From positions 5,826 through 69,825 of the forward strand of contig CAZUDZ010000001.1 in NCBI GenBank assembly GCA_964618765.1: DNA of 64,000 nt, read 5' to 3'. The notes below the pieces were generated by a model. The model was not told where the DNA came from and did not search any database. It was given only the letters and a program-made list of their open reading frames with translations. Both the position numbers and the translations under genes were made by a program. This stretch comes from an uncultured Candidatus Saccharibacteria bacterium (GTDB lineage: Bacteria > Patescibacteriota > Dojkabacteria > SC72). Positions within the stretch are counted from its first letter, which is position 1. Each line of letters opens with the position of its first letter. Shown here piece by piece: positions 7,082 through 43,258 of the stretch.

Positions 7082-7105
7082 GTAATAATTTAAGTATATA
7101 AAGAT

Positions 7106-7819: not shown

Positions 7820-7907
7820 TTATTAAAATTTCCTGTTTCATATATTTGTAATTTCTGAACACTTGTCAACCTCTCTCCATTGATATACAATTATTTGTTA
7901 ATAATAT

Positions 7908-8468: not shown

Positions 8469-8484
8469 ATTTTATTTGTAATAG

Positions 8485-9621
8485 ATGGTTTCCATTTTAA
8501 TAAACATAATTCTTTTCATCCTTGTAATAGGGTTTTTAACCTTTGTACATGAGTTAGGTCACTTCCTTGCTGCCAAGTCGATTGGGGCAAAGGTCTATGA
8601 ATTTTCATTAGGTTTTGGTCCTAAACTTCTTTCAAAGAAATATAAAGAGACTCTATACTGTATTAGAATCATTCCTTTGGGTGGATTTGTTAAGATATTG
8701 GGAGATGGTGATCCAAGTGAGTATGAAGGGAGTGTTAAGGATTTAGAGAATAGTAAATATAATTTAAACAATAAAAGTAAGATAGCTCAGATATTTGTTA
8801 TGTTGGCAGGTATCTTAATGAATATCTTGTTTGCAGTTGTCTTCTACTACGCAATCTTAGGACTTAATGGCTGGAAGAGTAATCCCATATATGTTGATTT
8901 AGAGAAAATAAATATAGTTGGTGCGAAGGTTGAGAAGGTAGTAGGTTATCAAGTTGTAGAGAAAGGGAATGCTTCTCAGGCAGGGTTGCCTACATACGGC
9001 ATAATTAAAGAGTTAGGGGGAGTAGAAGTCAATGACAAGGAGCAGCTAGTTGAGATGATCAAGGGTAGTGAGGAGGTTTCTCTTTTTGTTTGTGATGATT
9101 TGGAAGGTGAATGCAATGACTATACTGTAAAAGTAAATGGGGAGGGTCATATAGGGATATATATATCTCATGGTTTTGTTCTTAATTATGATGAAATGAA
9201 GGTTTTTGCTGGTCCTGTGTATTTGATAAATAATCTTAAAATTATAGGTAGAGTATTAGGTTCTTTAATAGGTTCAGCAAGAGAGACGGGTGATTACTCT
9301 GATCTTTCAAATACAGTGTCTGGCCCTATTGGCATATTTCTCTTAATAGATAGTTTGAAGGGCAGGGGTATAGTAGCGTTTCTTTCTTTAATAGCGGATC
9401 TTTCCATATCTCTAGCAATAATGAATCTTTTACCTATTCCTGCATTAGATGGGGGTAGGGTTATGATTGTAGTTTTGGAGGGGGTATTTAGAAAAAAGTT
9501 TAACGAGAAATTTAAAACGGTTGTTATTAACATCAGCATGGTATTGCTCATCCTGTTAGTGGTGTTGGTAATGGTTAAGGATGTTGTTAATATAGATAGT
9601 ATGAGGAGTATGTTTGAGTAG
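8485..9621 (+). CDS. rseP: Site-2 protease RseP-like M50 zinc metalloprotease with a PDZ domain
   Basis: HELGHFLAAK zinc motif in the first transmembrane (TM) helix, a central PDZ-like region, and a C-terminal LDGG motif (NLLPIPALDGGRV). Confidence 0.8.
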   Translation: MVSILINIILFILVIGFLTFVHELGHFLAAKSIGAKVYEFSLGFGPKLLSKKYKETLYCIRIIPLGGFVKILGDGDPSEYEGSVKDLENSKYNLNNKSKIAQIFVMLAGILMNILFAVVFYYAILGLNGWKSNPIYVDLEKINIVGAKVEKVVGYQVVEKGNASQAGLPTYGIIKELGGVEVNDKEQLVEMIKGSEEVSLFVCDDLEGECNDYTVKVNGEGHIGIYISHGFVLNYDEMKVFAGPVYLINNLKIIGRVLGSLIGSARETGDYSDLSNTVSGPIGIFLLIDSLKGRGIVAFLSLIADLSISLAIMNLLPIPALDGGRVMIVVLEGVFRKKFNEKFKTVVINISMVLLILLVVLVMVKDVVNIDSMRSMFE

Positions 9622-22529: not shown

Positions 22530-23423
22530 ATGAGTCAGAATACAGTTTCAATAAAATTAACAGCAAATGAGGCAGAACTCTTAAAAGGAATTCTTTTGGA
22601 AAAGGGTTGGAATGAACAGGAGATAAATAATGAGTATATTGCTCTTAGGATGAAAAATGATGAAGGCTCTGTTTGTACACTGTATACTAGTATGAAAGTA
22701 GTTTTTCAAGGGAAAGAAGATTTCAAGGATATATTGGGAATATTGAAGGATACAGAAGAGGATATCAATATAGTGGCACACATAGGCGTAGATGAGGTTG
22801 GTAAGGGTGATTACTTTGGTCCTTTAGTTGTAGTGGCTTGTTTTGTAAATAAGGATTTCTTAAATCAGATTCAAGGATTAGGTATAGGAGACTCTAAGAA
22901 GATCTCAGATAGAAGAATAATTGATATTTATGAAGAAATAAAAGAGTACCCATACTATTATGTCTCCATTGTACATCCTAAGGAATACAACAGACAAATC
23001 AAAGAGCTTAAGAATGTATCTATCCTTCTAGCTAAGCAGCACTCCAAGGTTATAGAGATGGGACTGAAGGACTTGAAAGAGGAAAACATAGAATGTACAG
23101 AGGTTGTCATAGATCAATTCTCTTCAAAGAAGAGTAGGGTAGTTGATGAGTTAGGGCCATTGGCACAAAAGGTAAATTTTGTACAATACCATAAAGGGGA
23201 GTCAGATATAGCAGTAGGATGTGCATCTGTTCTTGCTAGAGCAATATTTCTAAGAGAGTTAGATGAAATGGGTCGTAAGTATTACTTTACATTTCCCAAG
23301 GGGGCTTCAGCTGTCATAGATACTGCTCGAGAATTTGTTAGGAAAAATGGAGCGAAAGAGTTAGAGAATGTAGCAAAAACAGGCTTTAAGACAACAAAGA
23401 AGGTTATACAGGATTCTTTTTAG
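22530..23423 (+). CDS. rnhC: Ribonuclease HIII-like: an ~80-aa N-terminal domain plus an RNase HII-fold catalytic domain
   Basis: Catalytic GVDEVGKGDYFGPLVVVA (DEDD family). The N-terminal extension and ~300 aa length fit RNase HIII better than HII. Confidence 0.7.
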   Translation: MSQNTVSIKLTANEAELLKGILLEKGWNEQEINNEYIALRMKNDEGSVCTLYTSMKVVFQGKEDFKDILGILKDTEEDINIVAHIGVDEVGKGDYFGPLVVVACFVNKDFLNQIQGLGIGDSKKISDRRIIDIYEEIKEYPYYYVSIVHPKEYNRQIKELKNVSILLAKQHSKVIEMGLKDLKEENIECTEVVIDQFSSKKSRVVDELGPLAQKVNFVQYHKGESDIAVGCASVLARAIFLRELDEMGRKYYFTFPKGASAVIDTAREFVRKNGAKELENVAKTGFKTTKKVIQDSF

Positions 23424-24321
23424 GCTTCTTTTTTGAAAAGAGTACTTTCAAAAATATCACAGTAAGAAGTAATCCTAGTCCTACAAGAAGAAGAACTGTA
23501 TAGTTTGGTTGAATAATTACTTCTTTGACTATAATATTCTCATCTATTCCATTATAGAATCTCCCAACGACGATTTTCTCAGAGAAAAAATCAGATAAAT
23601 GATAATCATCTATCTCAAACTCTTCTTCTAATAACCCCTGGGGGTATAATTTTTGTTGCTTCTCATTAATCTTTAAGTAAATTGGGGGATAGTCACCTCT
23701 CTTGCTATACAGCTGTATCTCTCCCATAGGATTTAATACATAGTTAGTGTCATTTTTGTAAGAATACTTTATTGTAGTAGGGGACATAAAAGGTACTCCC
23801 TTTTCTATAACCTGTATATCAATAGTAGCAAACTTACTACTGATCCCATAAATATCGCTTTCTGAGTCCACTATATGAAGTACAACCAGCTGTGAGAGGC
23901 TCTCTACTGTCCCTACAGGGCTTGTCTCAGTGACAAATGTATCTTCCATCTGTCTTTCTAAAACTATCAGATTGAAGTAAGTTCCTGGCTTCATATTCGC
24001 GATAGGGACAACCTCGTACTCAATCTCTAGAGTTTCTTTAGGTTTAACTTTAAATATCTCCTTGTCTGCTCGTGTGAAGATAATGCCGTTACTGTCGGTC
24101 ATTTCCAATGTTTCAGGGTCATATGAGTGCACTATTGGTGTAATGAGAACATCTTTCTTAGAATCATTTTCGAAGTAAACGGATCCCTTTGTTCTTTCTT
24201 CATTTGAGATTAGAATCTCATTTTTGTATGGGTATATTGTACCCGCAAAGACTTCTTTGTGCTGTAAAAAATTTAGCATCAACAAAAACAAAACTGTTAG
24301 GAATACTGTTTTGAACTTCAT
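23404..24321 (-). CDS. Surface protein with N-terminal signal peptide and C-terminal TM anchor plus Lys-rich tail (gene A of a 4-gene surface operon)
   Basis: Signal MKFKTVFLTVLFLLMLNFL...VFA and C-terminus LLLVGLGLLLTVIFLKVLFSKKKPKKNPV. It has the same topology as DUF916/CscA-like anchors. Confidence 0.7.
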   Translation of the reverse strand: MKFKTVFLTVLFLLMLNFLQHKEVFAGTIYPYKNEILISNEERTKGSVYFENDSKKDVLITPIVHSYDPETLEMTDSNGIIFTRADKEIFKVKPKETLEIEYEVVPIANMKPGTYFNLIVLERQMEDTFVTETSPVGTVESLSQLVVLHIVDSESDIYGISSKFATIDIQVIEKGVPFMSPTTIKYSYKNDTNYVLNPMGEIQLYSKRGDYPPIYLKINEKQQKLYPQGLLEEEFEIDDYHLSDFFSEKIVVGRFYNGIDENIIVKEVIIQPNYTVLLLVGLGLLLTVIFLKVLFSKKKPKKNPV

Positions 24322-24328
24322 ATGTTCC

Positions 24329-25357
24329 TTATTTAGGTAGATTTTCTGATTTCTTCTTCTCCTTCTTTTTCCTGAGGGTTACTATTAATATTGTTGTTAG
24401 GATTATTATTAATGCTAGTAGGATGTATCTCCAAGGTAATATCCAGAAGGAGGCAGTTGCACTCAGTGGTGCGAAACCTGGTTGGAATGTACGATACATT
24501 AATATCAAGTTAGCATCTATTGGCCCCATTATGAGTTTCTTGTTTGCACTTAAGAAAGAACCGTAGTCCCATGGAGTTTCGTATTCGGCTGTATTGCCTC
24601 TTAATATACTCTGTCCATTTTCATTAAATATTATCTTACCTACTTCTTGCTTAAAGATATTTGTTAAAATGATCTCTCCGACAGGGCTAATGTGTGTATC
24701 TCCTAGGTTGTTAATTCTAGTTTCAAACTTAACAGTAGGAGTTTCGTAGAAATTTCTGTCTGTTGTAAATTTTAGCAACTCTGCATTCTCGGTAAATTCA
24801 TCTCCGATTTTTATTAGGATAGGGGTTCCTGAAGAAAGAGAAGTAAAAGCAGCTGTCCCTCCAAGGGCCGAATCTGTTTCTGAGATAAAGGCTACTATTA
24901 CAGTATATTCTCCCTTTGTTATATTCTTGGGGACATTAATTTCATAGAAGATTTTCTCATTCTTGTTTGGTATCAAAGTAATCTTCTCCCTACTTACTTT
25001 GGTCCAAGAAGCAGCAGAGTAGAGTGCTTTCTCTTCTTCCTCTTCTGTGAACATAATGGCAGTACCAGGCTGGTTTTCAATCTGTCTAAAACCTCTTACA
25101 TATACATTGTAAGTAGTTGTTTCTTCTGAGAGATTCCATACAACGATTTCCCCTTCATACTTTTCTCCTATTTCTAACTGTAATTTTTCAGAAACAGGTG
25201 CAGTGCCGATGTTTAGAGTTGTTTGTGCGTTAGCAGCTTTGCTGAAGAAAAAGAGAAGTACAATTGAGAAAATTGTGGCTAAAGAAACTATTCGTTTGTA
25301 GTACCTTGGGGCAGAGTATAGATTTTGATTTTTCATAATTAGTAGTAACCGCCACAA
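24329..25357 (-). CDS. Surface protein with N-terminal signal peptide and C-terminal TM anchor plus KKKEKKK tail (gene B)
   Basis: Signal and helix at the N-terminus; C-terminus ILLALIIILTTILIVTLRKKKEKKKSENLPK. Its start overlaps the upstream gene by 19 nt. Confidence 0.7.
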   Translation of the reverse strand: MWRLLLIMKNQNLYSAPRYYKRIVSLATIFSIVLLFFFSKAANAQTTLNIGTAPVSEKLQLEIGEKYEGEIVVWNLSEETTTYNVYVRGFRQIENQPGTAIMFTEEEEEKALYSAASWTKVSREKITLIPNKNEKIFYEINVPKNITKGEYTVIVAFISETDSALGGTAAFTSLSSGTPILIKIGDEFTENAELLKFTTDRNFYETPTVKFETRINNLGDTHISPVGEIILTNIFKQEVGKIIFNENGQSILRGNTAEYETPWDYGSFLSANKKLIMGPIDANLILMYRTFQPGFAPLSATASFWILPWRYILLALIIILTTILIVTLRKKKEKKKSENLPK

Positions 25358-26460
25358 ACATATGTGACATACTCGTTATATGTTCCTGCTAAAGCTGCAG
25401 AATCTGCTCTTGCTCCATAAGTAATGCCTGCACTGTGGGCAGGTGCGGTAGGTGTAGTTTTATATAGTAGTAATTTAGCACCAGTTGCATTTGCTACTAT
25501 TCCTCCAAAAGTCGTAGGTGCTGTTACTTGAAAGTTAGCTGCTGTAGTTGCGCCTGAGGGTGTTGTTGAAACTACCAAGCCGAACCCCTTTGTATCTGAT
25601 CCAGAAAGGTCAACAGTTGTAGCCCCAGAGTTAAGCGTATATCCTGCTCCTGTGGAGTTATAAAGACCTGCGGTGGTACCGTTACCTTTCCCATATACAG
25701 CCCAATAGTAACCACTATTCGTAGAAGACGTACTAATTTGTGTCGCCTCTTCTTTTGTTACTAAGGCACCTCCGGGAAACAGAGTTCCTATGGATACTGT
25801 AGTAGGAGCTACCGTACAATTGATAGTAGGAGCTGCAGTTACGGTGGCAGACACTTGAACAGTATCTTCAGCGATAAGATAAACTCCAAAGGCTTTAGAA
25901 TCTAAATTGTCATCATCAGAGACCTGTATTGTTATAGTTTTGGATCCAGAGGTTGCAGCAGTTCCTAATCTTCCTGTGCCATTGGATACTTTAACCCCGT
26001 ATGTAGTCCCACTAGTAAGAGAGCCAACATTGGTTATGGTTATCCTATCTGTAGTAGCTCCACTACCGATGGCACAAGTAGCGGCAAGGGTACTAGCTGC
26101 TTTTACTGGAAGAGCTGTAGTTATATCATAACCTGTAACATCAGGAGCTCCTGTTGCAACTCCTGTTACTGTTAGTGCGCCTGCATTTCTACACCAGTTG
26201 GTATTATCACTTTTTGGAAATAGTATCTCAATTTCAAGGTTCTTAGCTTCTGCGAAGGCCTGGCTAGGAGTAACTGCGAGAACCATTTCAACCTCATTGT
26301 TTGTTTGTCCATTTAAACCTGCCTTAATTCTACTTAGAAAAAGGTATGTGCTACCAAGAGTCCCTGCTTGGGTCTTAAAGTTTGGAAACAGCATAACAAA
26401 GAAAAATGTAGAGACCAAAAAAATCATTACAACGGAAATCAGTTTGTTTTTTTTCATCAC
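25339..26460 (-). CDS. Secreted Thr/Gly/Ala/Ser-rich beta-rich protein with no C-terminal anchor (gene C)
   Basis: Signal MMKKNKLISVVMIFLVSTFFFVML, then a low-complexity T/G/A/S-rich sequence with alternating patterns typical of surface beta-sandwich or fibre proteins. It ends ...YVCGGYY. Confidence 0.7.
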   Translation of the reverse strand: MMKKNKLISVVMIFLVSTFFFVMLFPNFKTQAGTLGSTYLFLSRIKAGLNGQTNNEVEMVLAVTPSQAFAEAKNLEIEILFPKSDNTNWCRNAGALTVTGVATGAPDVTGYDITTALPVKAASTLAATCAIGSGATTDRITITNVGSLTSGTTYGVKVSNGTGRLGTAATSGSKTITIQVSDDDNLDSKAFGVYLIAEDTVQVSATVTAAPTINCTVAPTTVSIGTLFPGGALVTKEEATQISTSSTNSGYYWAVYGKGNGTTAGLYNSTGAGYTLNSGATTVDLSGSDTKGFGLVVSTTPSGATTAANFQVTAPTTFGGIVANATGAKLLLYKTTPTAPAHSAGITYGARADSAALAGTYNEYVTYVCGGYY

Positions 26461-26566
26461 TTGAATAGGGCAGACCTTTAATGTTAATTAATGGTAGTAA
26501 AAAGATAACTGATTAATTCTAATATGTCAAGAGGTTTTACAACCTCCTCCGTAGTATTAAAGTTAT

Positions 26567-27766
26567 CTAGTATCTGGGTACTAATATAAAATAAATTAAC
26601 TCAGAGTAGTCTGTAGCAGAAGTTCTACTTGTGGAGGCTCTAGCTTTTAGGTATATACCCATTCTGCCAGTATTAATAGGTCCATCTCCATCATAGATTT
26701 TTTTAGCATCAGTAGAAACCTCTCCAACTACATTCGCACTTCCTGCATAGTTTGTCATACTAGTTATCTCTCCTAAATATGTAGAAACTTCGTAGTCAAT
26801 ATAGTAATTTTGTAAACCGAAACCTTCAGCTGCAGAAGAATCTAAGTCGATATTGGTTGATGGAATTAATTCTGTTGTGGTTGTACTGTACAACCCTCCA
26901 TTCTTTCCATACTGTATGACAGCCATCCCGCCAGAAGAGCTACTATCTACATCTAACCATATTAAACTAGAAGAAGTAACAACAGCTGCACCTCCGATCA
27001 ATTTCTCTCCTCCTGAGAAAGATACTGTGTATGGGGGAGAGGATTCTGTACTGTATCCTGTGCTAGTAGCAATATCTATATCAAAAAATAACTTTGCTAA
27101 AGCTGTCTTAGCATTTACTGAAATACTTGGATCGGATTGCGTAAAATCACCGTGTAATGCTGATGTTCTAATGTAGTAGGTGGTGTCAGGTTCTAATCCT
27201 TTAATATTGAAAGTTTCATCCTCCCAATATGTTTCGGTTCTAAAGTCATTAATATTACAGTTACTAGCTACCTTAGGTTGAAAGGTAGATGCATCGACGC
27301 ATCTGAAATCAGAAACGAAATTATCTAGAGATACCTGTATACCGTATAGGGTGTCAGAAGGGTTACTGTGGGGCTCTATCTCGAACCTTGCCTTGTCGTA
27401 ACAACCATTTCCTCCACATATCGCTACCATTCCTCCACTTAATAGCTCTGTAGGACCGGAAGTGCAGTTAGTAGATCCGTTACTACTTGTTTCAAAGCAC
27501 TGTATGGAAGGTTGTGCAGCCACAAATGCGTTAGAGGGATCTTGATCTACTCTGTAGGAAGTAGAGTAATTTCTAGGGTTTGCAGTGAGTCTTCCTACTT
27601 CCGAGAGCATCTGGAAATTACTGGATTCTAAAGTTCCTCCACCGCCAGATGTAGATACTCCAACCATTTTGAAGTTGGTTGAGTCTAATTCATATGCAAA
27701 AAGATTAGTAGTAAAAAAAAGGATAGGGAGGAAAAGGAAAGGAATTAAGATATTAGCAGATTTCAT
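26567..27766 (-). CDS. Secreted protein with a duplicated S(T/S)NF(K/Q)M motif after the signal peptide (gene D, first in the operon)
   Basis: Signal MKSANILIPFLFLPILFFTTNLFA. The mature N-terminus is YELDSTNFKM...GGGGTLESSNFQM. It has several Cys pairs and no C-terminal anchor. Confidence 0.7.
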   Translation of the reverse strand: MKSANILIPFLFLPILFFTTNLFAYELDSTNFKMVGVSTSGGGGTLESSNFQMLSEVGRLTANPRNYSTSYRVDQDPSNAFVAAQPSIQCFETSSNGSTNCTSGPTELLSGGMVAICGGNGCYDKARFEIEPHSNPSDTLYGIQVSLDNFVSDFRCVDASTFQPKVASNCNINDFRTETYWEDETFNIKGLEPDTTYYIRTSALHGDFTQSDPSISVNAKTALAKLFFDIDIATSTGYSTESSPPYTVSFSGGEKLIGGAAVVTSSSLIWLDVDSSSSGGMAVIQYGKNGGLYSTTTTELIPSTNIDLDSSAAEGFGLQNYYIDYEVSTYLGEITSMTNYAGSANVVGEVSTDAKKIYDGDGPINTGRMGIYLKARASTSRTSATDYSELIYFILVPRY

Positions 27767-27827
27767 ATGTCAATCATATTGTAAAATATGTTAATTAGTC
27801 AAATTTTGATATAATTCTAAAAGTTTT

Positions 27828-27914
27828 GGAGAGGTGCCAGAGTGGTCGAATGGGACGGTCTTGAAAACCGTTGTACAGGTTTCTGTACCGTGGGTTCGAA
27901 TCCCACCCTCTCCG
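27828..27914 (+). tRNA. tRNA-Ser (anticodon TGA)
   Basis: GGAGAGG...CCTCTCC acceptor stem, anticodon loop CTTGAAA, long variable arm (TGTACAGGTTTCTGTACC), T-loop GGTTCGAATCC. 87 nt. Confidence 0.85.
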
Positions 27915-28022
27915 TTTGTTCGTAATCATAATGTTAATACTTCCCTCTTAATACTCTACATTATGTACTACAAGATTGGTAAGGTGGATTTTAAATTAAC
28001 TTTAGCATAAAATACCTACACA

Positions 28023-29663
28023 ATGACATCTGAAAACAAGAAACAGAAAGACTCATTTGTAACAAGCCGATATAAACCAAAGGATAGGGATGGTGGATTT
28101 CCTTCTTCTATGCCTCGTTGGCAAAGAAGATTCTTTGAAATAATGCCAGGCCTTTTTGTTTGGACACTACTATTACTTCCAGTAATATTTGCAGTACTAA
28201 AGTTTGATATCGGAATGGTTGTATACATGTCTTTTCTTGTTATGTATTGGCTTTTTAGAACCTTCAAACTACTCATCGGGGTATATATAGGAGTAAAGAG
28301 GATGACTCTGCAGAGTAAAACTGACTGGGTTGGTGAAATTGAGAAGTTAAATTCTCCTAAACAGAAAGATTTAAGATACATATATCTCTGTCCTGTCTAC
28401 GCAGAAACATTAGAAATATTAGAACCCTCTTTTGAGAGTTGGGCAAACAGTGATATTGGTGCAGAGAAAATCGATGTAGTAGTAGCAATGGAGGAAAAGA
28501 AGAAGGATTTGCAGATTGAGAACTTTAATAAGCTTAAGAAGAAATATGGAGACAGATTTGGAAGCATGACATACTACATTCATCCTGCTGGAATAGTTGG
28601 TGAAGTGGCGGGGGTAAAAGGAGCAAATATCAATTGGGCAGCAAGGCATTTTGTAGAGAAGCTAGAGAAAGAAAACAAGAACTTAAGAAACTATCTTTTA
28701 ATAACCTGCGATTCTGATTTAAGAGCGCATCCTAAATACCTTTCTGCTGTAACATATAAATATCTAACGGTAGAAGACCCGGAGCGTACCTTCTATGCCT
28801 CTGCGATTCACTCTTTTAACAACAACATTTGGAATGTTCCTCCAATAATTAGAACTCAATCCAATATGTTAACTTTAGTAGTTTTGCATCTTTGGGTTTT
28901 TGATAGGTCATATAAATTTCCTTTCACCCAAGACAGGGTATATACAAAAGACACATTCTCTTCTTACATAGTCAATTTAAACACTTTAAAAGAGATACAG
29001 TTCTGGGATCCTGAGATTCCAAATGATGATACTGCCTTCTACTGGAACTCAATACTTAGATCAAAAGGCGAGTTTAAAAGTCAGGAGGTGTATGTTCCTA
29101 CATATAATGATGCGGTAGAAAACAAAACATTTCTTCAATCTCACGTATCTTTTTACAAACAACAGTACAGGTGGGGCTGGGGAATTATCAATTTCCCAAT
29201 ATCCTTAGCAGTAATGTTTTCTGACAAAAAGGATTTTCCTGCTTACAGAAAGATGCTCATGTTAAAAATGATGTTTGACTACCTCTGGGTACTTACAGTT
29301 GTTTTTGTTCTTACATTTGGACTGAATATAGTGGGTTGGATAAATCCTTCTTACCAATATACTGTTTTTGCATACAATCTACCAAGAATTCTCAGCTATA
29401 TATTCACTGTAGTAGTGTTTCTTAACATTCCGTTGGTTCTGTTTAGAAGAAAGATAACCCCAATCCCTAAAAATTGGAAATGGTGGAGACATATTCTAGA
29501 TTTCTTAGAGACATTTCTAATTGCTGTAAATATGTTAACTTTTGCCTTCATCCCATATATCCAAGCGATTACAGAAATGATGCTAGGTAGAACTCGCTTT
29601 AAACGCAATTTCTATGTTACGGAGAAGGTTAGAATAGAGGGAAAGGAAAAAGGAGATAGTTAA
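28023..29663 (+). CDS. Polytopic membrane glycosyltransferase, family 2-like (cellulose-synthase-like topology)
   Basis: N-terminal TM helices, a central cytoplasmic GT-A-like region (CDSD, GxKGxNxN-like segment), then five or more C-terminal TM helices with a QxxRW-like segment (QQYRWGWG). Confidence 0.6.
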   Translation: MTSENKKQKDSFVTSRYKPKDRDGGFPSSMPRWQRRFFEIMPGLFVWTLLLLPVIFAVLKFDIGMVVYMSFLVMYWLFRTFKLLIGVYIGVKRMTLQSKTDWVGEIEKLNSPKQKDLRYIYLCPVYAETLEILEPSFESWANSDIGAEKIDVVVAMEEKKKDLQIENFNKLKKKYGDRFGSMTYYIHPAGIVGEVAGVKGANINWAARHFVEKLEKENKNLRNYLLITCDSDLRAHPKYLSAVTYKYLTVEDPERTFYASAIHSFNNNIWNVPPIIRTQSNMLTLVVLHLWVFDRSYKFPFTQDRVYTKDTFSSYIVNLNTLKEIQFWDPEIPNDDTAFYWNSILRSKGEFKSQEVYVPTYNDAVENKTFLQSHVSFYKQQYRWGWGIINFPISLAVMFSDKKDFPAYRKMLMLKMMFDYLWVLTVVFVLTFGLNIVGWINPSYQYTVFAYNLPRILSYIFTVVVFLNIPLVLFRRKITPIPKNWKWWRHILDFLETFLIAVNMLTFAFIPYIQAITEMMLGRTRFKRNFYVTEKVRIEGKEKGDS

Positions 29664-29720
29664 TCTAGATTTCATATCCGTTTTGTAAAATATCTTTGAA
29701 TAAATTTAAAAGATATTATT

Positions 29721-30896
29721 ATGCTTCTAATTCTCTTTTTTCTACTACTCCTCACATCGCCCATATATGGAGATGGTTTTGATATGATAGGCAACTGTAG
29801 TTTTAATAGATACAGGCAAACTACAGCTATTTCTCTGTTCTTTCTTCCGGAGAGTGTAAGTAACGGGAATTTTGGGATCTCTTACGATACGAACTTAGTA
29901 GAGGGTACTAAAACAGAAGATGTTTGGGAAAATATTTCTCTAGGGACTTTAACAGAGAATGATTATTGGAGAAGAATACCAGGAGTTTTAGATAATGTTA
30001 GTGGGCCTCCTGGGACTGAGATAGATATCCTGTATTTCTTTCTTAACCAGACAGGTCATGCAGTAGAGGTTAGTAAAATAGCTCTCCCTTTCAGCAGGAC
30101 AAATTTAGATCAAGGTAATTGGCTAAAGCTAGCCTCTATGTATGGAAATTCTCCAATATACAGGGAGATACCAATTCCTTGGGAGCAACTTGTTCTTGGG
30201 AGGAAATCTCTTACTAAAGAGTATTCAGGTCCTGGTCTACTATACGATGGGCAGGGAGGATCAGAAGTAGTAGATTCATTGACCATCTCGGATCCGATAC
30301 TAATTAAGGATATCCAAGTAGTAAGGCAGCAAGATGGAGTTAAGATAACACTTTGGTTAGAAAATATCACAACTGAACCCTTGGAGGATATTCTTTTAGA
30401 ACATTTTAAATATGTAAAGGAAGTAACAATTCCTGCTCTTGAAGAGATAGAGGTTAGCTATCTACTTAAGGATTTTTCTGGCTCTGAGGTATTAAGGATA
30501 ACGAATCCTAATAGTGCACAGGAGTGTATAATCTATGGTAATTCATTCTCTGATTGGACTAAGACAGAAGCAATAACAGTTCTAGCATACAGAGAGGATG
30601 GTGGATGGGTAAATGGTTCATATGTACAGCCTGAGGTTGAAAGTTTCTGTATTAGGCAAATACCATATACGACAAACATCATATTAAGAGGATACGAAGA
30701 TATGTGGGATGAAACAGCTGTAAGTCAAAAAGAAGAAAAAGAGACAGCAGAAGGGGAAGCTACAGAGGAGGAGAGTAGTGTTAAAGAAGATAAGGAAGAG
30801 ATATTAGGTATATCTAGAGAGGCCTTAGATGATCAGGGGGTGCGAATAAAGAGGGATAACTTTTTACTACCTAAAACAGGCGTGGTAATATATTAG
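29721..30896 (+). CDS. Secreted protein ending in LPKTG followed by only five residues
   Basis: Signal MLLILFFLLLLTSPIYG. The C-terminus is ...NFLLPKTGVVIY*, with LPKTG at 30867-30881. Confidence 0.65.
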   Translation: MLLILFFLLLLTSPIYGDGFDMIGNCSFNRYRQTTAISLFFLPESVSNGNFGISYDTNLVEGTKTEDVWENISLGTLTENDYWRRIPGVLDNVSGPPGTEIDILYFFLNQTGHAVEVSKIALPFSRTNLDQGNWLKLASMYGNSPIYREIPIPWEQLVLGRKSLTKEYSGPGLLYDGQGGSEVVDSLTISDPILIKDIQVVRQQDGVKITLWLENITTEPLEDILLEHFKYVKEVTIPALEEIEVSYLLKDFSGSEVLRITNPNSAQECIIYGNSFSDWTKTEAITVLAYREDGGWVNGSYVQPEVESFCIRQIPYTTNIILRGYEDMWDETAVSQKEEKETAEGEATEEESSVKEDKEEILGISREALDDQGVRIKRDNFLLPKTGVVIY

Positions 30897-32397: not shown

Positions 32398-33804
32398 ATG
32401 ACCATACAATTTCTAGGAGCTGCTAAAACAGTAACAGGATCATGCTTTTACATAGAAACTGATCAGACAAAATTTCTTGTAGATTGCGGAGCATTTCAAG
32501 GACCCGAAGAGATAGAGGAAAGAAACTATGAACCTTTTCCATTTAGTCCAAGTGATATAGATTTTGTATTTCTTACTCATGCCCATTTTGATCACTGTGG
32601 GAGAATTCCTCTTCTTGTAAAACAAGGTTTCAAAGGGAGGATAATATCTACTCAGCCTACGAGAGATTTAGTTAGAATAATTCTTTTAGATTCAGCTAGT
32701 CTTCAAAAAGAAGAGTACGAGAGGTGGCTAGCCAGGCCGAAAGGTTCTTCAAATTCAGAAGAAGATAAGCGTAAAAAGCCTTTGTATACGGAGGAAGATG
32801 TTGAAGAGGCTATGAAATTTTTTGAAGTATACCCATATAGCGATTCTGTTAATTTGGCTGAAGGGTGTGAATTTAGAATGAGAGATGCAGGACATATTTT
32901 GGGATCAGCAATATTTGAACTTTGGGTGAAAAATGAAGCAGGAAGGATGAGAAAGCTGGTTTTCTCAGGAGATCTAGGCCAACCTGGAGCAAGAATTGTA
33001 AAAGACCCAGACCTCATAAGAGAGGCAGATTATGTTATCTGTGAATCTACATATGGGAATAGGTTACATAAAAACAGAAATGAAACAGTCTTAGAATTCC
33101 TAACAGCTCTTAAAAGTGCTCAAAAAGTTGGAGGGAACATTTTAATACCATCTTTTGCAATAGAAAGAACTCAAGAGATACTCTATGAATTAAACCTTTT
33201 TGTAGAAAACAAGTTAATAGAGAATATTCCAGTATATTTAGACAGTCCAATGGCAGCGAAGGCAACAGAAGTATTCAAACAGTATCCTAACTTCTATGAC
33301 GAGGATGCAAAAAGATTACTCAAACAGGGAGATGACCCTTTTGAATTCCAAGGGTTTCAGAAAATAGAATCAGTAGACGAGTCCAAGAGATTAGCTGCTA
33401 AAAAGGGAGTCATAATAATAGCTGGTAGTGGGATGTGCACAGGAGGGAGAATTCTCCATCATCTTAAAAATAACATAGAAGATCCTTCAACTCATTTAAT
33501 AATTGTAGGTTACCAAGTAAAAGGGACTTTGGGAAGAAGGTTTGTAGATCAGGAGAAGGTTGTGAAGATTTTTGGGAAGGAGTACGAAAATGTTGTTAAA
33601 CTATTTACCCTTGGAGGATTCTCAGGTCATGGAGATCAAAGAGATTTAAGATATTGGTTAAGAAGTTTTGGACATACTCCTAGAAAGATATTTTTGGTAC
33701 ATGGAGATGAGGATGTTATTACCGATTTCAAAAAGGGCTTAGAGGAGGAAATCCCTACGGAAATACAAGTACCAGACCATGGAGAATTAGTTAAATTAGA
33801 GTAA
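32398..33804 (+). CDS. Metallo-beta-lactamase / beta-CASP ribonuclease (RNase J / CPSF-like)
   Basis: HAHFDHCGRIP (HxHxDH), a beta-CASP region, and a C-terminal HGD motif (FLVHGDED). Confidence 0.75.
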   Translation: MTIQFLGAAKTVTGSCFYIETDQTKFLVDCGAFQGPEEIEERNYEPFPFSPSDIDFVFLTHAHFDHCGRIPLLVKQGFKGRIISTQPTRDLVRIILLDSASLQKEEYERWLARPKGSSNSEEDKRKKPLYTEEDVEEAMKFFEVYPYSDSVNLAEGCEFRMRDAGHILGSAIFELWVKNEAGRMRKLVFSGDLGQPGARIVKDPDLIREADYVICESTYGNRLHKNRNETVLEFLTALKSAQKVGGNILIPSFAIERTQEILYELNLFVENKLIENIPVYLDSPMAAKATEVFKQYPNFYDEDAKRLLKQGDDPFEFQGFQKIESVDESKRLAAKKGVIIIAGSGMCTGGRILHHLKNNIEDPSTHLIIVGYQVKGTLGRRFVDQEKVVKIFGKEYENVVKLFTLGGFSGHGDQRDLRYWLRSFGHTPRKIFLVHGDEDVITDFKKGLEEEIPTEIQVPDHGELVKLE

Positions 33805-33822: not shown

Positions 33823-34770
33823 ATGGATAAATATCCAGAGATAGAGAAAATATATAATGATATAAAAGATTTGAACATTCAGGGTGCTACCAATGTTGCA
33901 ATCGCAACATTCGAAGGAATGAATCTGTATGAAGAAATAAGTAAACAGGAGGAGAAAGAGCTGTTTTACAAAGAGTTCTTTGAGGTAGGGGACAAGCTTT
34001 CTCATGCTAGGGTAAATGAGCCTCTAGCTACAAATGGTGTTAAATATGTGAAATACTCTTTTGATAAAAAATATTCCGTTTTACCAGAGTTAGCAACCAT
34101 GAAACGAGAGTTAGTGAAGCTCTCTGAGGATTTTCTTGATATTATCGGACAATCTAAGAAGGATCTGATAGATAAATCATGGAGGTTCTTCTCTAACTAC
34201 AACAAGATATTTACTCACTGTCACTCTTCTACCGCTGTATCATTAATTAAATCAATTTCTAAAAACAAGCCTAAATTCGAAGCAGTTTGTACAGAGACAA
34301 GACCAAAACTACAAGGGAGAATCACAGCTAAGAGTTTACTTGAGGCCAAAATTAAAACTACCCTCATTGTAGATAATGCTGGAGAATCATTCATCATAAA
34401 TAGAGGTACTGTTCCAGTAGAGATAATTTTCATCGGTTGTGATCAGATTACTTTACAAGGTCATGCCATTAACAAGATAGGTAGCTGGGGATTAGGAATG
34501 GCTGCACATTTTGCAGACAAACCGTTCTATGTAGTTACACCTTTTCTTAAACTTGATGTAGACTCTTATCATGGCAGTGTAGAGATTGAAGTGAGAGAAA
34601 ACGATGAACTATGGAAGGATGCTCCAAAGGGATTGAATATGCATAATCCTGCATTTGAAGTTGTAGATAAGGCATTGATTACTGGTTATGTAACAGAGTT
34701 GGGGATTATAAGGGCAGATGATATTAAAAAAACAGCTAAAGAGCACTATCCTTGGCTGTTTACTACTTAA
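33823..34770 (+). CDS. eIF-2B alpha/beta/delta-like (e2b2) protein, ribose-1,5-bisphosphate isomerase-like
   Basis: GCDQITLQGHAINKIGSWGLGMAAHFADKPFYVVTP matches the e2b2/MtnA family core. Confidence 0.7.
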   Translation: MDKYPEIEKIYNDIKDLNIQGATNVAIATFEGMNLYEEISKQEEKELFYKEFFEVGDKLSHARVNEPLATNGVKYVKYSFDKKYSVLPELATMKRELVKLSEDFLDIIGQSKKDLIDKSWRFFSNYNKIFTHCHSSTAVSLIKSISKNKPKFEAVCTETRPKLQGRITAKSLLEAKIKTTLIVDNAGESFIINRGTVPVEIIFIGCDQITLQGHAINKIGSWGLGMAAHFADKPFYVVTPFLKLDVDSYHGSVEIEVRENDELWKDAPKGLNMHNPAFEVVDKALITGYVTELGIIRADDIKKTAKEHYPWLFTT

Positions 34771-34788
34771 GTTGTGTAATAAATTAAT

Positions 34789-36300
34789 ATGGCTTTCTAT
34801 TTAAGAAGTAAAAATTTAGATTTGGGAGAAGATAGTGATTTGAATATTGTTTTAAATCGTAAAGATGCAGAAAGATTAGGAGTAAGGGAGGGGGAGATTG
34901 CTCTTGTTGGCTTAGGAGAGGTAGAACTGCATGTTAATGTAATGGAAACAGACTCGAATGTTGCTGAGGGTGAAATCGGTCTTTTCGAAGAAATATGGAA
35001 GGAGTACAGAATAGAGAGTGGATCTTCTGTTTTTGTGGATATACCTAATCCTACGGAATCTTTAGGATTAATAAGTAAGAAGCTATTAGGACACAATCTT
35101 AAGGAAGAGGAATTGAAATTGATCATGAAGGACATAGGAAGTCGGAAGTTAAGGGAAACAGAGATAGCTTTTTTCATTTCAACATTCTTTAACCCTGGAT
35201 TTAATGATGATGAAATATATTGGATGACCAAGGGAATGGCAGGCTCTGGTGATATTCTAGACTTTAAGGGCATAAGGGGGAATGGTCATTTAGTAGCGGA
35301 CAAACACTCCATTGGGGGAGTAGCAGGAAAAGCAATAACACCAACCTTGGTCCCAATATTAGTCTCTGGAGGATTGATAGTTCCTAATACTTCTACCAGA
35401 GCAATAACCTCTCCTGCTGGGACATCAGATATTTTGGAAGTAGTAATGCCCGTAGCACTGTCTAAAGAGAAAGTAATGGAAGTGGTCAAGCAAACAGGAG
35501 GGTGTATGTTCTGGGGTGGTTCTTTAGATCTTTCTCCTGCAGATGATGTAATTATTAATGTTGAACGATCTTTAAGAATACAGGAATTCCAAAAGGTTCT
35601 AGTTAGTATCGTTGCTAAGAAAATCTCAATGGGTGTTACCCATATCCTCATAGATTTGCCATATGGAAAAGGTTCTAAGATAGAGAGAGTAGATGATGTC
35701 CAGATGTTAGACAGGGAGTTTAAGAAACTATTCAAGAAATTCAACATCCATTGTGAAACGATCAAGAGAGTTATTAAAGGTCCTGATGGGAGAAGCATTG
35801 GACCAAACATGGAGATTAAAGAGGCTCTGAAGATTTTGGAAGGAGATCAGGGTAAGTCTCAGGAGTTAGAGGACTCCGTCATAGAGATGGCGACTCGGTT
35901 GTTTGAAGGAACAAAAACAGTTGAGAGAGGGCAGGGTAAGAAATTTGCACAAGAAATTTTAAGCTCAGGGAAAGCTTTGGATAAATTCTGGGAGATAGCT
36001 TTTGCTCAGGGGGCAATTAAAAGGGTTAATTCATCTGAGATAAAGTCTGGGAATTTACAGTATGATGTTATTTCAGATCGAAATGGAGTGGTAAAATCGT
36101 TGGATAATACTGGATTGGTGAGTATTGCGAAGGCATTAGGTAACCCTAAGATAAAGGAGGCAGGAATATATATGCATAAAGTGCAGGGTGAACAGGTTAG
36201 CAAGGGTGATGTTTTAATAACACTGTATGCCACAACAGAGGCTAGACTAGGAAGTGCGAAGGAGATTTTAGATATAAATAAACTATATACTTTTAAATAG
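34789..36300 (+). CDS. AMP phosphorylase (thymidine phosphorylase family, archaeal-type with an N-terminal extension)
   Basis: Pyrimidine-nucleoside phosphorylase core (HSIGGVAGKAITPTLVPILVSGGLIVPNTSTRAITSPAGTSDILE) plus an ~90-aa N-terminal domain typical of archaeal AMPpase. Confidence 0.7.
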   Translation: MAFYLRSKNLDLGEDSDLNIVLNRKDAERLGVREGEIALVGLGEVELHVNVMETDSNVAEGEIGLFEEIWKEYRIESGSSVFVDIPNPTESLGLISKKLLGHNLKEEELKLIMKDIGSRKLRETEIAFFISTFFNPGFNDDEIYWMTKGMAGSGDILDFKGIRGNGHLVADKHSIGGVAGKAITPTLVPILVSGGLIVPNTSTRAITSPAGTSDILEVVMPVALSKEKVMEVVKQTGGCMFWGGSLDLSPADDVIINVERSLRIQEFQKVLVSIVAKKISMGVTHILIDLPYGKGSKIERVDDVQMLDREFKKLFKKFNIHCETIKRVIKGPDGRSIGPNMEIKEALKILEGDQGKSQELEDSVIEMATRLFEGTKTVERGQGKKFAQEILSSGKALDKFWEIAFAQGAIKRVNSSEIKSGNLQYDVISDRNGVVKSLDNTGLVSIAKALGNPKIKEAGIYMHKVQGEQVSKGDVLITLYATTEARLGSAKEILDINKLYTFK

Positions 36301-40871: not shown

Positions 40872-42230
40872 ATGCCAAAACTGCCTTTACTAGAAAAAAA
40901 TGCGTACTTAAGTGTTGTGATTAAAGATAATGGGATATGGTCCCATTTGGCTTATACAGACCACAACGCAACAAGGGAATATATTCTCTCTGACTTTACA
41001 GATCTATATCCTTTAAGACATCGTTTAGACGATGAAGTTTTTTCAAGTGAGTTTTGGGGAGAGTATTTTGATAATTTAGAAAAGGTATTTAACTGGGATA
41101 TTGTGGACAGGAACAAGAACACCATATTTACGTTTAGAAAATTTAAGAATGAGGGAGATGGAATCAACGGTATTAGGGTGCAAATAGATGATAACCAGAA
41201 GTTTTTTGACAAGATATTCTCATCAGTTAGAAGTTTTTCTAAAGATGTGTCTCTTAGGGTAGTAGATGATCAATATATGTACAAAACATTACAAGAATTA
41301 GCACACAAGAGTGAGTATGACGATATCATATATGTAGATATGGATCTTATGGACTTCTCGGTATTTCGTGTAAGAAAAGTGTATGACAGAAGGAGTAAGC
41401 AGAGTAAAAATATTTTCTCTAGGTCAAAGGTGAATTGGAAGGACACTGTGTCTTTAATTGATTCTCTCCGAGATGCAAGATTTGGAGCCTTCTTGGCCAC
41501 GGATATAGGGAGAAAGGAAGTACTGAATTATTGGAGCAACTTCGTTTTTAACAGAATTTTCTCTTCCGAAGACCCTAACCTTTTAGATATTCTCAGATCG
41601 TATTGTACTATACAAAATCATTCGATATATAGGGATAATAGTGAGAAGATAGAGGGTTTCGGAGTCTCTGGTCAGGAGAGTTGCTTGATTGTCTCTGGAT
41701 ACATCCCTCGTGTTTTGGGGAAGTCAATAACTATGTTGACACTAATAGACGGATTAGAATTAAAAGGAGTTTTTGATTGCTGTTGGGATCTAGATGCTAA
41801 GTTGCTTTCGTATGGTAGAAGTTATGTGGATGGAGTTAATACAGCGGATATTATTTTAACAAGGAGTGAGATACTCTCCGACTTTACAAAGGTAGTACTT
41901 CCATATATAAAATCCTCAATAGCTTCAAACAAAGTAATTTTCTCGGGTACTGTAGAATCATTAAGCACCAAAAAGAATGAAATCTTTACACTCTCAAACA
42001 AATACTCTTATATAGATTTGCCAGTGAGTAATAATGAGAAATTTGTAGTGGAGGGACAGTTGAAAGAAGGTTTGTACATTCCTCCTAGCAAAAACAGGTT
42101 TGTAAACTTTGTGTCTGCTCCCAATGGTAAACAGTATGAGTCTATTCTTGTAGATGCAAGAGCTAGGCCGGTTGTGTATGGGCCTGATAGTAGTGCCAAT
42201 AAATTAAAGTTGCAAGAGTGGATAAAATGA
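40872..42230 (+). CDS. Hypothetical protein (452 aa)
   Basis: Long ORF with no recognised domain. The only noted feature is a DIGRK segment. It overlaps the next ORF by 13 nt. Confidence 0.6.
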   Translation: MPKLPLLEKNAYLSVVIKDNGIWSHLAYTDHNATREYILSDFTDLYPLRHRLDDEVFSSEFWGEYFDNLEKVFNWDIVDRNKNTIFTFRKFKNEGDGINGIRVQIDDNQKFFDKIFSSVRSFSKDVSLRVVDDQYMYKTLQELAHKSEYDDIIYVDMDLMDFSVFRVRKVYDRRSKQSKNIFSRSKVNWKDTVSLIDSLRDARFGAFLATDIGRKEVLNYWSNFVFNRIFSSEDPNLLDILRSYCTIQNHSIYRDNSEKIEGFGVSGQESCLIVSGYIPRVLGKSITMLTLIDGLELKGVFDCCWDLDAKLLSYGRSYVDGVNTADIILTRSEILSDFTKVVLPYIKSSIASNKVIFSGTVESLSTKKNEIFTLSNKYSYIDLPVSNNEKFVVEGQLKEGLYIPPSKNRFVNFVSAPNGKQYESILVDARARPVVYGPDSSANKLKLQEWIK

Positions 42231-43258
42231 TAGTAAGAAGGAAGATATTTGAAAGATATACAGATTACAGGTTTAATATCCCATATAAACCAGGGGATAG
42301 AGTATTGGTAAAAAGGGGAGATACTCTAAAGGAGAGTTCAGACCTTATTACTAAGAGGGGTAGTAATATTAAGCAATCTTTCTATTTGCCCGAGAAGATA
42401 GGAGTTGAAATATCAAAATTGCCAGAATATATAAAGTGTATGGATGGTGTGTTTGTAAATAAGGGAGATATTTTAGCAGAGAAAACTTTAGCAGGAGGCT
42501 TGAGTGTAAAAAGAGTTCTCTCTCCTGCACAGGGTGTGGTAGATCTTTCTAGGTTAGGTAGTGGCTATCTAGACTTACTGGGGGAGGAGAGTGAGATAGT
42601 TGTAAAAAGTACCTTTGGGGGAATAGTAGAAGGAGTGGACCCTGTCGAGGGAATAAATATTGTCTCAGATTCGTATGCTTTAGACCTCCTTTCTATTTCA
42701 GATATTCTTACAAGGTCGAAAGAAGAAAGGAAAATTTTTGGAGAGTTTATTGTCCTAGGAGATGGCAAGGATCTTGTTTTACATGCGGATAACTCAGACT
42801 ATCAGGACAAAATAGTGTTTGTTGGAAAATATCTCCACACCAGCCTACTTAATGATCTGTTCGAAAAAGGAGCTCTCTTTGTTTTAACATACTCCATGGA
42901 TTACGAGGATTTTAGAAGACAAGGCTTACCAGTTGGTGTAATCGGGGGATTTGGGGAGATATATTCTAGCAAGCAGATAATAGAGTTGATATCTTCCATG
43001 AGAGGGAAATTTGCTGTGCTAGATTATGATGAGAACCAAATATTCTTTATCACCAAAGATAAAACCTTCCTTTCTAAAGAAGAATTGTTTGTCAGAGTAG
43101 CATCTGGGAGCACCATACTCTCTCGTTCTCTTTCGAATTACGGAATGCTTGGGAAAATATTGTCAGTAGAGGAGGAAGGCCTCTATGTAAATGTCCAATG
43201 GGAGGGTGGTCAGAGAAGTATCATAAGTTTAGCAAGTGTCGAATTTGTGTCTCTTTGA
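42218..43258 (+). CDS. Hypothetical protein (346 aa)
   Basis: Long ORF with no recognised domain. Its start overlaps the upstream hypothetical gene, suggesting translational coupling. Confidence 0.6.
   Translation: MDKMIVRRKIFERYTDYRFNIPYKPGDRVLVKRGDTLKESSDLITKRGSNIKQSFYLPEKIGVEISKLPEYIKCMDGVFVNKGDILAEKTLAGGLSVKRVLSPAQGVVDLSRLGSGYLDLLGEESEIVVKSTFGGIVEGVDPVEGINIVSDSYALDLLSISDILTRSKEERKIFGEFIVLGDGKDLVLHADNSDYQDKIVFVGKYLHTSLLNDLFEKGALFVLTYSMDYEDFRRQGLPVGVIGGFGEIYSSKQIIELISSMRGKFAVLDYDENQIFFITKDKTFLSKEELFVRVASGSTILSRSLSNYGMLGKILSVEEEGLYVNVQWEGGQRSIISLASVEFVSL

Follow-up and report, generated by a model that had tools for sequence, protein, structure and literature searches.

Do two adjacent genes in a Dojkabacteria genome specify the enzymes that open the archaeal-type AMP pathway, and if so, where is the RuBisCO that would complete it? 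The genes lie near the middle of the window, by which we mean the whole 64,000-nucleotide (64 kb) stretch of DNA that we analyzed. The source organism is a Candidatus Dojkabacteria bacterium (WS6, CPR/Patescibacteria): the homologs are named Candidatus Dojkabacteria, so the initial annotation was right to relate the locus to the CPR. It had also described an e2b2-family isomerase followed immediately by an enzyme of the thymidine phosphorylase (TP) family. We found both open reading frames, on the + strand and 18 nt apart, and judging from their matches to known families (below) these are real genes and not chance ORFs. The features of the locus are:

32398..33804, + strand: beta-CASP metallo-beta-lactamase ribonuclease (TTHA0252 type), 468 aa, directly upstream of the isomerase gene
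33823..34770, + strand: isomerase gene, 315 aa, predicted CPR-type ribose-1,5-bisphosphate isomerase (e2b2, eIF2B-related family)
34771..34788, + strand: intergenic spacer of 18 nt between the isomerase and phosphorylase genes
34789..36300, + strand: phosphorylase gene, 503 aa, predicted archaeal DeoA-type AMP (nucleoside-monophosphate) phosphorylase

The short spacer is consistent with co-transcription of the isomerase and phosphorylase genes. A scan of 29.5–38.4 kb for promoter-like and terminator-like sites found none between the two genes, and fewer sites in the scanned region than in shuffled sequence. The two genes are adjacent in all of the related loci that include upstream DNA (34/34), with spacers of roughly 20–45 nt. 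Across the window's clade, the order ribonuclease, isomerase, phosphorylase is invariant. In a deeper relative (L090), this block is syntenic as well, with a form III RuBisCO inserted between the isomerase and the phosphorylase.

The phosphorylase matches the Pfam families Glycos_trans_3N, Glycos_transf_3, and PYNP_C. Its best NCBIfam model is AMP_phos (TIGR03327; 453.5 bits, E = 7.9e-136), as compared to 196.1 bits for Y_phosphoryl and 124.7 bits for T_phosphoryl. The AMP_phos score is below that model's equivalog cutoff of 535 bits; the protein is above the cutoffs of the sister models TIGR02645 (444.4 vs. 434.6) and NF003338 (449.3 vs. 434). When compared to proteins of known structure, it scores 297 bits against the AMP phosphorylase (AMPpase) from Thermococcus kodakarensis (PDB 4GA5) and 111 bits against pyrimidine-nucleoside phosphorylase (PyNP). 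By both models and structures, then, it stands apart from the ordinary pyrimidine-nucleoside phosphorylases, a grouping that the initial annotation had allowed for. The reported N-terminal extension is there as well: the N-terminal domain is ~87 residues, and the T. kodakarensis enzyme aligns from residue 19 of the window's protein, whereas the alignments to TP and PyNP begin only at residues ~85–95. The role of this domain in AMPpase, where it has ~84 residues and which TP and PyNP lack, is described in PMC8376864.

The enzyme from T. kodakarensis (TK0353; 4GA4, 4GA5, and 4GA6) resembles the window's phosphorylase in several ways. Both have the three-domain TP fold plus the N-terminal domain, both are 503 amino acids long, and they are 37% identical over 465 residues. 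The window's protein retains the residues with which the TP fold binds phosphate (His, Ser, Ser113, and Thr123), and the two enzymes share active-site states that are unlike those of TP and PyNP. Specifically, the T. kodakarensis states T87I, Y168I, F210K, and L117I (at TP positions) are common to 29/29 orthologs; the reference sequences for this comparison were validated. These substitutions may have a functional meaning in the nucleoside pocket. We treat them as comparative only, because we found no published paper on structural determinants that would tie them to mechanism. The two enzymes differ in that the lysine of the K-H-S motif is kept in the window's protein, as in TP, but is a valine in T. 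kodakarensis, and in that the window's protein is from a mesophile. Taken together, these comparisons support the prediction that the phosphorylase is an AMP phosphorylase of the archaeal DeoA type, and not a TP or a PyNP.

The isomerase matches the Pfam family IF-2B (PF01008; E = 1.2e-45). Its family assignment is less clear from scores. Its best matches in PDB are ribose-1,5-bisphosphate (R15P) isomerases (3A11, 101 bits; 5YFJ, 98 bits), and the margin over the methionine salvage enzyme MtnA (1T9K, 84 bits) is small. It is also below the equivalog cutoff of TIGR00511 (ribulose_e2b2; 160.9 vs. 314.1 bits), and the generic eIF-2B_rel model (TIGR00524), whose name comes from MtnA, gives a level score of 162.3 bits. 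We classified the isomerase by residue signatures and gene context instead of by a tree of three clades (archaeal R15P isomerases, the CPR family, and MtnA), because the topology of an unrooted tree that lacks an outgroup is uninformative.

We took the roles of R15P isomerase residues from PMC5789824. The catalytic Cys133 and Asp207 are present in the window's isomerase and are invariant among its orthologs. The 5-phosphate ligands Ser135 and Lys243 correspond to Ser137 and Lys240 of the enzyme from Pyrococcus horikoshii, and these two, together with the Cys, the Asp, an Asn-Lys pair, Arg65, and Gln166, are invariant in 35/35 orthologs from Dojkabacteria. Three of the four 1-phosphate ligands are conserved (Arg65, Gln166, and Lys215). 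The window's isomerase thus has the PF01008 fold, the catalytic pair, and the sugar ligands of the R15P isomerases from T. kodakarensis and P. horikoshii (3A11 and 5YFJ), with Ser137, Lys240, Arg65, Gln166, and Lys215 all conserved. The exception is the fourth 1-phosphate ligand, Arg22 of the archaeal enzymes, which is replaced by Gln20; a glutamine is found here in 35/35 orthologs, and most of the 139 representatives of the CPR-type family have it too.

MtnA (2YVK and 1T9K) shares the fold, the catalytic Cys and Asp, and the 1-phosphate ligands. What distinguishes the two is the 5-phosphate site, where MtnA, with its non-basic pocket for the 5-substituent, has Ala and Thr/Ser and the window's isomerase has Ser and Lys. 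Correspondingly, the active-site motif is THCHSS (C-H-S-S at its core) instead of CNAG. The initial annotation had raised the prospect that the e2b2 protein would group with MtnA; by THCHSS and Lys243, it goes with the R15P isomerases. The R15P isomerase signature is found in 125 of the 139 family representatives and in 42 of the 44 family members that adjoin a RuBisCO gene. Gene context points the same way: among distant loci of the isomerase family, 35/46 have a RuBisCO within 3 kb, and one protein (P0400) is a natural fusion of the isomerase to RuBisCO. To our knowledge, MtnA genes are associated neither with form II/III or form III RuBisCO nor with AMPpase. These observations support the prediction of a CPR-type ribose-1,5-bisphosphate isomerase.

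We also considered whether the pair might take part in ordinary bacterial salvage, with a pyrimidine-nucleoside or thymidine phosphorylase that happens to lie beside the MtnA of methionine salvage. The names of close homologs of the phosphorylase are mixed, as JGI calls them "AMP phosphorylase" and NCBI calls them "thymidine phosphorylase," and the isomerase scores equally well on the model that is named after MtnA. But the phosphorylase, which has the N-terminal domain of AMPpase, scores over 250 bits better on AMP_phos than on the TP and PyNP models, while the isomerase lacks the CNAG motif, has the Ser and Lys ligands for the 5-phosphate, and belongs to a family that is often beside RuBisCO or, in P0400, fused to it. 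Furthermore, the window contains no other gene for methionine salvage. Because the model scores, the N-terminal domain, the active-site residues, and the RuBisCO context all contradict ordinary salvage, we consider it very improbable.

Instead, it is highly probable that the pair carry out the first two steps of the archaeal-type AMP (pentose bisphosphate) pathway in Dojkabacteria, and that they feed a RuBisCO that is encoded elsewhere. This reading is based on the family assignments, the active-site signatures, the conserved operon, the frequent proximity of the isomerase family to RuBisCO, and the RuBisCO genes of close relatives, all of which are apparent at the level of sequence. We infer the catalytic activities of both enzymes, as well as the presence of a RuBisCO in this genome. 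The phosphorylase would convert a nucleoside 5'-monophosphate and phosphate to the free base and ribose-1,5-bisphosphate, which the isomerase would convert to ribulose-1,5-bisphosphate (RuBP). A RuBisCO elsewhere in the genome, most probably of form II/III, would then form two molecules of 3-phosphoglycerate, which would enter lower glycolysis and yield ATP. By this route, a very small symbiotic cell could gain 3-phosphoglycerate and ATP from the ribose of scavenged nucleotides, with no need for either upper glycolysis or the pentose phosphate pathway. This role for nucleotide ribose is central to current models of the metabolism of Dojkabacteria.

A lifestyle that depends on nucleotide salvage had also been proposed from another part of the window, where pyrH is missing between tsf and frr, and frr is followed by rseP with no uppS or cdsA. 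We confirmed this arrangement, as four genes are consecutive:

5951-7081: rpsB
7106-7819: tsf
7908-8468: frr
8485-9621: M50/RseP-type protease

It is plausible that the missing pyrH, uppS, and cdsA reflect a lifestyle of salvage, and this is in line with what has been published on WS6, although 64 kb of sequence is too little to establish that the genome as a whole lacks them.

The window itself lacks RuBisCO, as had been reported. None of its ORFs of at least 120 amino acids matches PF00016, and a tblastn search of the window with seven RuBisCOs (of forms II, II/III, and III) gave no match at E ≤ 1. (In this panel, the queries from T. kodakarensis and M. burtonii were validated against PDB, and the form II query from R. 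rubrum was not.) We then considered 35 related genomes, which were gathered by scanning genome contigs for AMPpase (the best AMPpase identity to the window's protein was 87%). None of the 35 has a RuBisCO within 10 kb of the isomerase-phosphorylase pair. Two relatives do have form II/III RuBisCO at a distance. In JBGGJB010000002.1, whose AMPpase is 77% identical to the window's, the RuBisCO is on the same contig as the pair and 150 kb away. In the MAG with prefix CAYGKF01, whose AMPpase is 86% identical, the two are on separate contigs (RuBisCO on 50, the pair on 32). The statement that the RuBisCO lies elsewhere or is absent was correct as it stood, and in close relatives the form II/III enzyme is indeed encoded at a distance.

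We also searched a protein database, using as queries a CPR-like form II/III RuBisCO from a PDB alignment and a RuBisCO from Dojkabacteria (P0210), and we joined the RuBisCO matches to AMPpase matches by WGS prefix, among other keys. This connected RuBisCO to relatives, including the CAYGKF01 MAG, but none of the form II/III matches could be attributed to the window's genome. Similarly, none of nine RuBisCO proteins (P0218, P0240, P0241, P0229, P0284, P0205, P0279, P0283, and P0285) was found in the samples that hold the window's organism (SRR8925749, SRR8925809, SRR8925753, SRR8925713, SRR8925716, and SRR16642416).

Might RuBisCO have been lost from this genome? The pair alone could still free bases for salvage, with RuBP going to another sink, such as the non-carboxylating pentose bisphosphate route of haloarchaea (RuBP phosphatase and ribulose-1-phosphate aldolase). 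Besides the lack of an attributable RuBisCO in our searches, such a loss would fit with the patchy distribution and lateral transfer of RuBisCO in the CPR, where deoA and e2b2 are inherited vertically (PMC6389311). Also, haloarchaea run a pathway with R15P isomerase and without RuBisCO (PMC9700705). On the other hand, form II/III RuBisCO is found in two relatives whose genes around the pair are arranged as in the window, and RuBisCO and AMP phosphorylase are reported to be conserved in Dojkabacteria (bioRxiv 10.1101/2019.12.18.881540). The resemblance to haloarchaea is limited as well: their pathway uses a nucleoside phosphorylase and a ribose-1-phosphate (R1P) kinase instead of a nucleoside-monophosphate (NMP) phosphorylase, and haloarchaeal NMP phosphorylase is found only in species that have RuBisCO (PMC9700705). 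Neither the RuBP phosphatase nor the ribulose-1-phosphate aldolase that the haloarchaeal pathway needs was seen in the window, whose Pfam annotation includes no HAD phosphatase and no class II (FucA-like) aldolase. Finally, the missing match reflects the reach of the searches, which covered the window and related sequences. Overall, the loss of RuBisCO seems unlikely, and we prefer the view that an unlinked RuBisCO completes the pathway.

The finding is correct, but it is already known and ordinary, because the pathway has been described in the same phylum. Two papers, from 2016 (PMC5113843) and 2019 (Jaffe et al., PMC6389311), describe the three-enzyme pathway for Dojkabacteria (WS6). Both homologs are present in all of the RuBisCO-bearing CPR genomes that were studied, including Dojkabacteria (PMC5113843), and deoA and e2b2 are usually co-located only with form III-c RuBisCO (PMC6389311). 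The published cases share with the window the phylum, the two enzymes, and the proposed role in feeding RuBisCO, and as in the CPR cases other than form III-c (PMC6389311), RuBisCO lies apart from the pair. Nothing essential differs. The window is one more instance, and it confirms the published pattern for form II/III lineages, in which RuBisCO is not linked to deoA and e2b2.

The modest additions are the relative with a RuBisCO inserted at the same locus, the changes in the isomerase, and the constant ribonuclease neighbor, which the passages on this pathway that we consulted in PMC5113843 and PMC6389311 do not mention. In the isomerase, the family-wide change of Arg22 to Gln is accompanied by the loss of the site for the activator AMP: the allosteric residues Arg124, Arg190, Lys194, Arg229, Trp231, and Asp290 of the archaeal enzymes are not conserved (R124F, R190E, K194V, R229D, W231P, and D290T). 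Because of these replacements, activation by AMP may be absent from the CPR-type isomerase or may work differently.

The upstream ribonuclease matches the Pfam families Lactamase_B, Beta-Casp, and RMMBL, and it scores 301 bits against the RNase TTHA0252 in PDB (2DKF). A beta-CASP RNase is directly upstream of e2b2 in 33/33 genome loci with upstream DNA and in all 8 of the close metagenome loci, as compared to just 5 of the 45 distant metagenome loci with enough upstream DNA. We speculate that the RNase supplies 5'-NMPs to the phosphorylase. More tentatively, the RNase could be part of the pathway's operon, the RuBisCO within that operon could have been lost and replaced, and the isomerase could be under a different regulation than in archaea; that all three hold together is possible but doubtful. 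If they did, then the RNase, the R15P isomerase, the RuBisCO (where kept), and the NMP phosphorylase would form a catabolic operon that leads from RNA to 3-phosphoglycerate, with the beta-CASP RNase providing the 5'-mononucleotides. The form III RuBisCO within the operon, which L090 keeps, would have been lost from the window's clade and functionally replaced by an unlinked and laterally acquired form II/III RuBisCO, and the CPR-type isomerase, with Gln in place of Arg22 and without the AMP site, would be regulated unlike its archaeal counterpart.

The predicted isomerase and phosphorylase lie exactly where the initial annotation placed them, 18 nt apart and downstream of a beta-CASP ribonuclease (RNase):

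32398-33804, forward strand: TTHA0252-type beta-CASP RNase (PDB 2DKF, 301 bits)
33823-34770, forward strand: e2b2-family isomerase, 315 amino acids, matching Pfam IF-2B (PF01008; E = 1.2e-45)
34789-36300, forward strand: phosphorylase, 503 amino acids, with three thymidine-phosphorylase-fold domains (Pfam)

The pair itself is confirmed, and its interpretation as enzymes of the AMP pathway is supported. The alternative is an ordinary thymidine phosphorylase (TP) or pyrimidine-nucleoside phosphorylase (PyNP) together with methylthioribose-1-phosphate isomerase (MtnA), and it is contradicted: every test that we ran went against it. For the phosphorylase, the top NCBIfam model was AMP_phos, at 453.5 bits. 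The strict cutoff of 535 is not reached, but the protein exceeds the cutoffs of the sister models TIGR02645 and NF003338, and the models for TP and PyNP gave just 125-196 bits. Similarly, among PDB sequences, the AMP phosphorylase (AMPpase) of T. kodakarensis scored 297 bits, versus 111 for the best PyNP. The proposed N-terminal extension is present as well: about 87 residues precede the start of the TP/PyNP alignment, and they match the N-terminal domain of T. kodakarensis AMPpase. We aligned the protein to that enzyme, to TP from E. coli, and to PyNP from B. subtilis (the TP and PyNP sequences were validated), and the phosphate ligands are retained. At T87I, Y168I, F210K, and L117I, the protein and 28 orthologs have the residues of T. 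kodakarensis AMPpase, while TP and PyNP differ. From this alignment, we infer that these pocket positions are functionally meaningful.

For the isomerase, whole-sequence scores separate R15P isomerase and MtnA poorly (160.9 vs. 138.5 bits with NCBIfam, where a generic model scored 162.3, and 101 vs. 84 bits against PDB), but functional residues do separate them. Using ligand contacts from P. horikoshii structures (PMC5789824), we found that the protein keeps the catalytic Cys and Asp, the Asn-Lys sugar ligands, and the 1-phosphate ligands Arg65, Gln166, and Lys215. The side chains that bind the 5-phosphate (Ser137 and Lys240 in P. horikoshii) are Ser and Lys in this protein and in 35/35 Dojkabacteria orthologs, whereas Ala and Thr/Ser occupy these positions in four MtnA structures; this agrees with the R15P isomerase reading of the initial annotation. 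The protein also differs from the archaeal enzyme. Arg22, a 1-phosphate ligand, is Arg in archaeal R15P isomerases and in MtnA, but it is Gln throughout the CPR-type family (Gln20 here), and the family does not conserve the allosteric AMP site of the archaeal enzymes (residues 122, 188, 197, 232, 234, and 287 here). This is a large family, with 190 clusters at E ≤ 1e-30 in a search of 1.84 billion representatives, and the signature Gln-Cys-His-Ser...Lys is found in 125 of 139 full-length representatives.

To see the gene context of the family, we scanned JGI metagenomes with its alignment and obtained 80 loci. Among distant members (32-43% identical to our protein), RuBisCO lies within 3 kb downstream at 35 of the 46 loci with enough DNA, and anywhere in the locus at 14 of the 16 with 5 kb on each side. 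AMPpase follows within 6 kb at 22/33 loci. Of the RuBisCO-adjacent isomerases, 42/44 have the same signature as ours. The representative search also yielded a natural fusion (P0400; 726 amino acids) of an N-terminal Gln-type R15P isomerase and a C-terminal form III RuBisCO, a Rosetta stone that links the two enzymes. Together, these observations tie the Gln-variant isomerases to RuBisCO independently of their similarity to the archaeal enzyme.

In the window's own clade (at least 50% identity), the order RNase, isomerase, AMPpase is invariant (RNase in 8/8 and AMPpase in 7/7 metagenome loci), and RuBisCO was near the pair in 0/7. In one relative (DAOSSC010000003.1; locus L041, 10001-11380), the AMPpase aligns in one frame by its C-terminal half only, 657 nt past the isomerase, which may reflect a frameshift or pseudogenization. 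Scanning species-representative genomes with the phosphorylase, we found 35 Dojkabacteria MAGs (65-87% identity), several of them mislabelled as Saccharibacteria or Microgenomates. These 35 loci agree: the three genes are kept and RuBisCO is not nearby. Their conserved block comprises two unknown ORFs, CCA-adding enzyme, RNase, isomerase, AMPpase, a transglutaminase-like protein (opposite strand), YchF, S6, and SSB. Phosphorylase homologs at 58-88% identity are likewise named Candidatus Dojkabacteria or candidate division WS6, and JGI calls them "AMP phosphorylase."

As the initial annotation stated, RuBisCO is not in the window. No ORF of at least 120 amino acids matched PF00016, and tblastn with seven RuBisCOs (forms II, II/III, and III) gave nothing at E ≤ 1; PDB sequences confirmed the queries from T. 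kodakarensis and M. burtonii, and the form II query from R. rubrum was unvalidated. Nor did database searches place any RuBisCO match on the NCBI contig (136,959 bp) that contains the window. The window's population is also present in at least 6 Logan assemblies, and of nine RuBisCO proteins traced by sample, none was present in samples containing that population.

Relatives do carry RuBisCO. JBGGJB010000002.1 (320,735 bp) encodes a Dojkabacteria form II/III RuBisCO at ~137 kb and the RNase-isomerase-AMPpase block at ~288 kb, 150 kb away (AMPpase 77% identical to ours). Another form II/III protein, on CAYGKF010000050.1, is above the NF010002 cutoff and has the catalytic motifs KPK, KNDE, HRA, GIH, and SGG; in that MAG, the pair (its AMPpase 86% identical to ours) lies on a different contig, CAYGKF010000032.1. 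In a deeper relative (metagenome locus L090, 7027-13852; GC 31%), the window's syntenic block recurs in the order CCA enzyme, RNase, isomerase, form III RuBisCO, AMPpase, S6, and SSB. This RuBisCO (447 amino acids; 519 bits to TIGR03326, over the cutoff) sits between isomerase and AMPpase, and this block, unlike the window's, lacks the transglutaminase-like gene and YchF. Given this insertion and the distance of RuBisCO from the pair in the other relatives, the window has the common operon minus its RuBisCO. Members of the clade keep a different form of RuBisCO elsewhere in the genome, and we think it quite likely that the window's genome encodes one. A variant without RuBisCO, such as the non-carboxylating route of haloarchaea (PMC9700705), is disfavoured because relatives carry RuBisCO and because the window contains no HAD phosphatase or FucA-like genes.

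The system in the window is already known. In Wrighton et al. 2016 (PMC5113843), Dojkabacteria were named from a closed genome with form II/III RuBisCO, all RuBisCO-bearing CPR genomes contained both AMP-pathway homologs, the R15P specificity of the CPR isomerase was checked by alignment and modelling, and fermentation of ribose to 3-PGA was proposed for WS6. In a later study (bioRxiv 10.1101/2019.12.18.881540), AMP phosphorylase and RuBisCO are counted among the conserved features of Dojkabacteria. The initial reading is thus correct, and the system is one that was described in this very phylum. Jaffe et al. 2019 (PMC6389311) built on the 2016 work and showed that co-location with deoA and e2b2 is usual only for form III-c, and that fusions exist; the window fits their vertical inheritance of deoA/e2b2 with lateral exchange of RuBisCO.

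The RNase is a modestly new element: our literature search found no paper connecting a beta-CASP RNase with the isomerase-AMPpase pathway. In the Dojkabacteria clade, it invariably directly precedes the isomerase, and eight more distant loci likewise have it on the upstream side, among them four-gene clusters that contain RuBisCO (L086 and L090). Beta-CASP RNases break RNA down to 5'-mononucleotides, and these serve AMPpase as substrates. The RNase could thereby feed the phosphorylase, so a functional operon of RNase, isomerase, and AMPpase is plausible. Inherited gene order is also an adequate explanation, as the linkage is embedded in a larger conserved block and is missing from most distant lineages (present in 5/45).

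Elsewhere in the window, rpsB, tsf, frr, and an M50 protease are successive (5951-9621), without pyrH, uppS, or cdsA, as had been remarked. Within this run, tsf, frr, and the RseP-type protease (7106-9621, forward strand) also lack dxr, another usual member of the cluster. The S2 protein from rpsB (5951-7081, forward strand; 376 amino acids) is an unusual fusion: its C-terminal domain matches that of the RNA polymerase alpha subunit (PF03118, residues 316-375, E = 4e-16). Eight consecutive large ORFs (305-546 amino acids; 23404-30896 and 40872-43258) have no Pfam matches. Throughout Dojkabacteria, two of these (28023-29663 and 29721-30896) keep their place upstream of the CCA enzyme, the latter at just 26-48% identity. 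A TrwB/VirD4-like coupling-protein ATPase (824 amino acids; 54431-56905) is followed 4 kb later by a long tyrosine recombinase (465 amino acids; 61120-62517), and from roughly 60 kb on the cumulative GC skew levels off.
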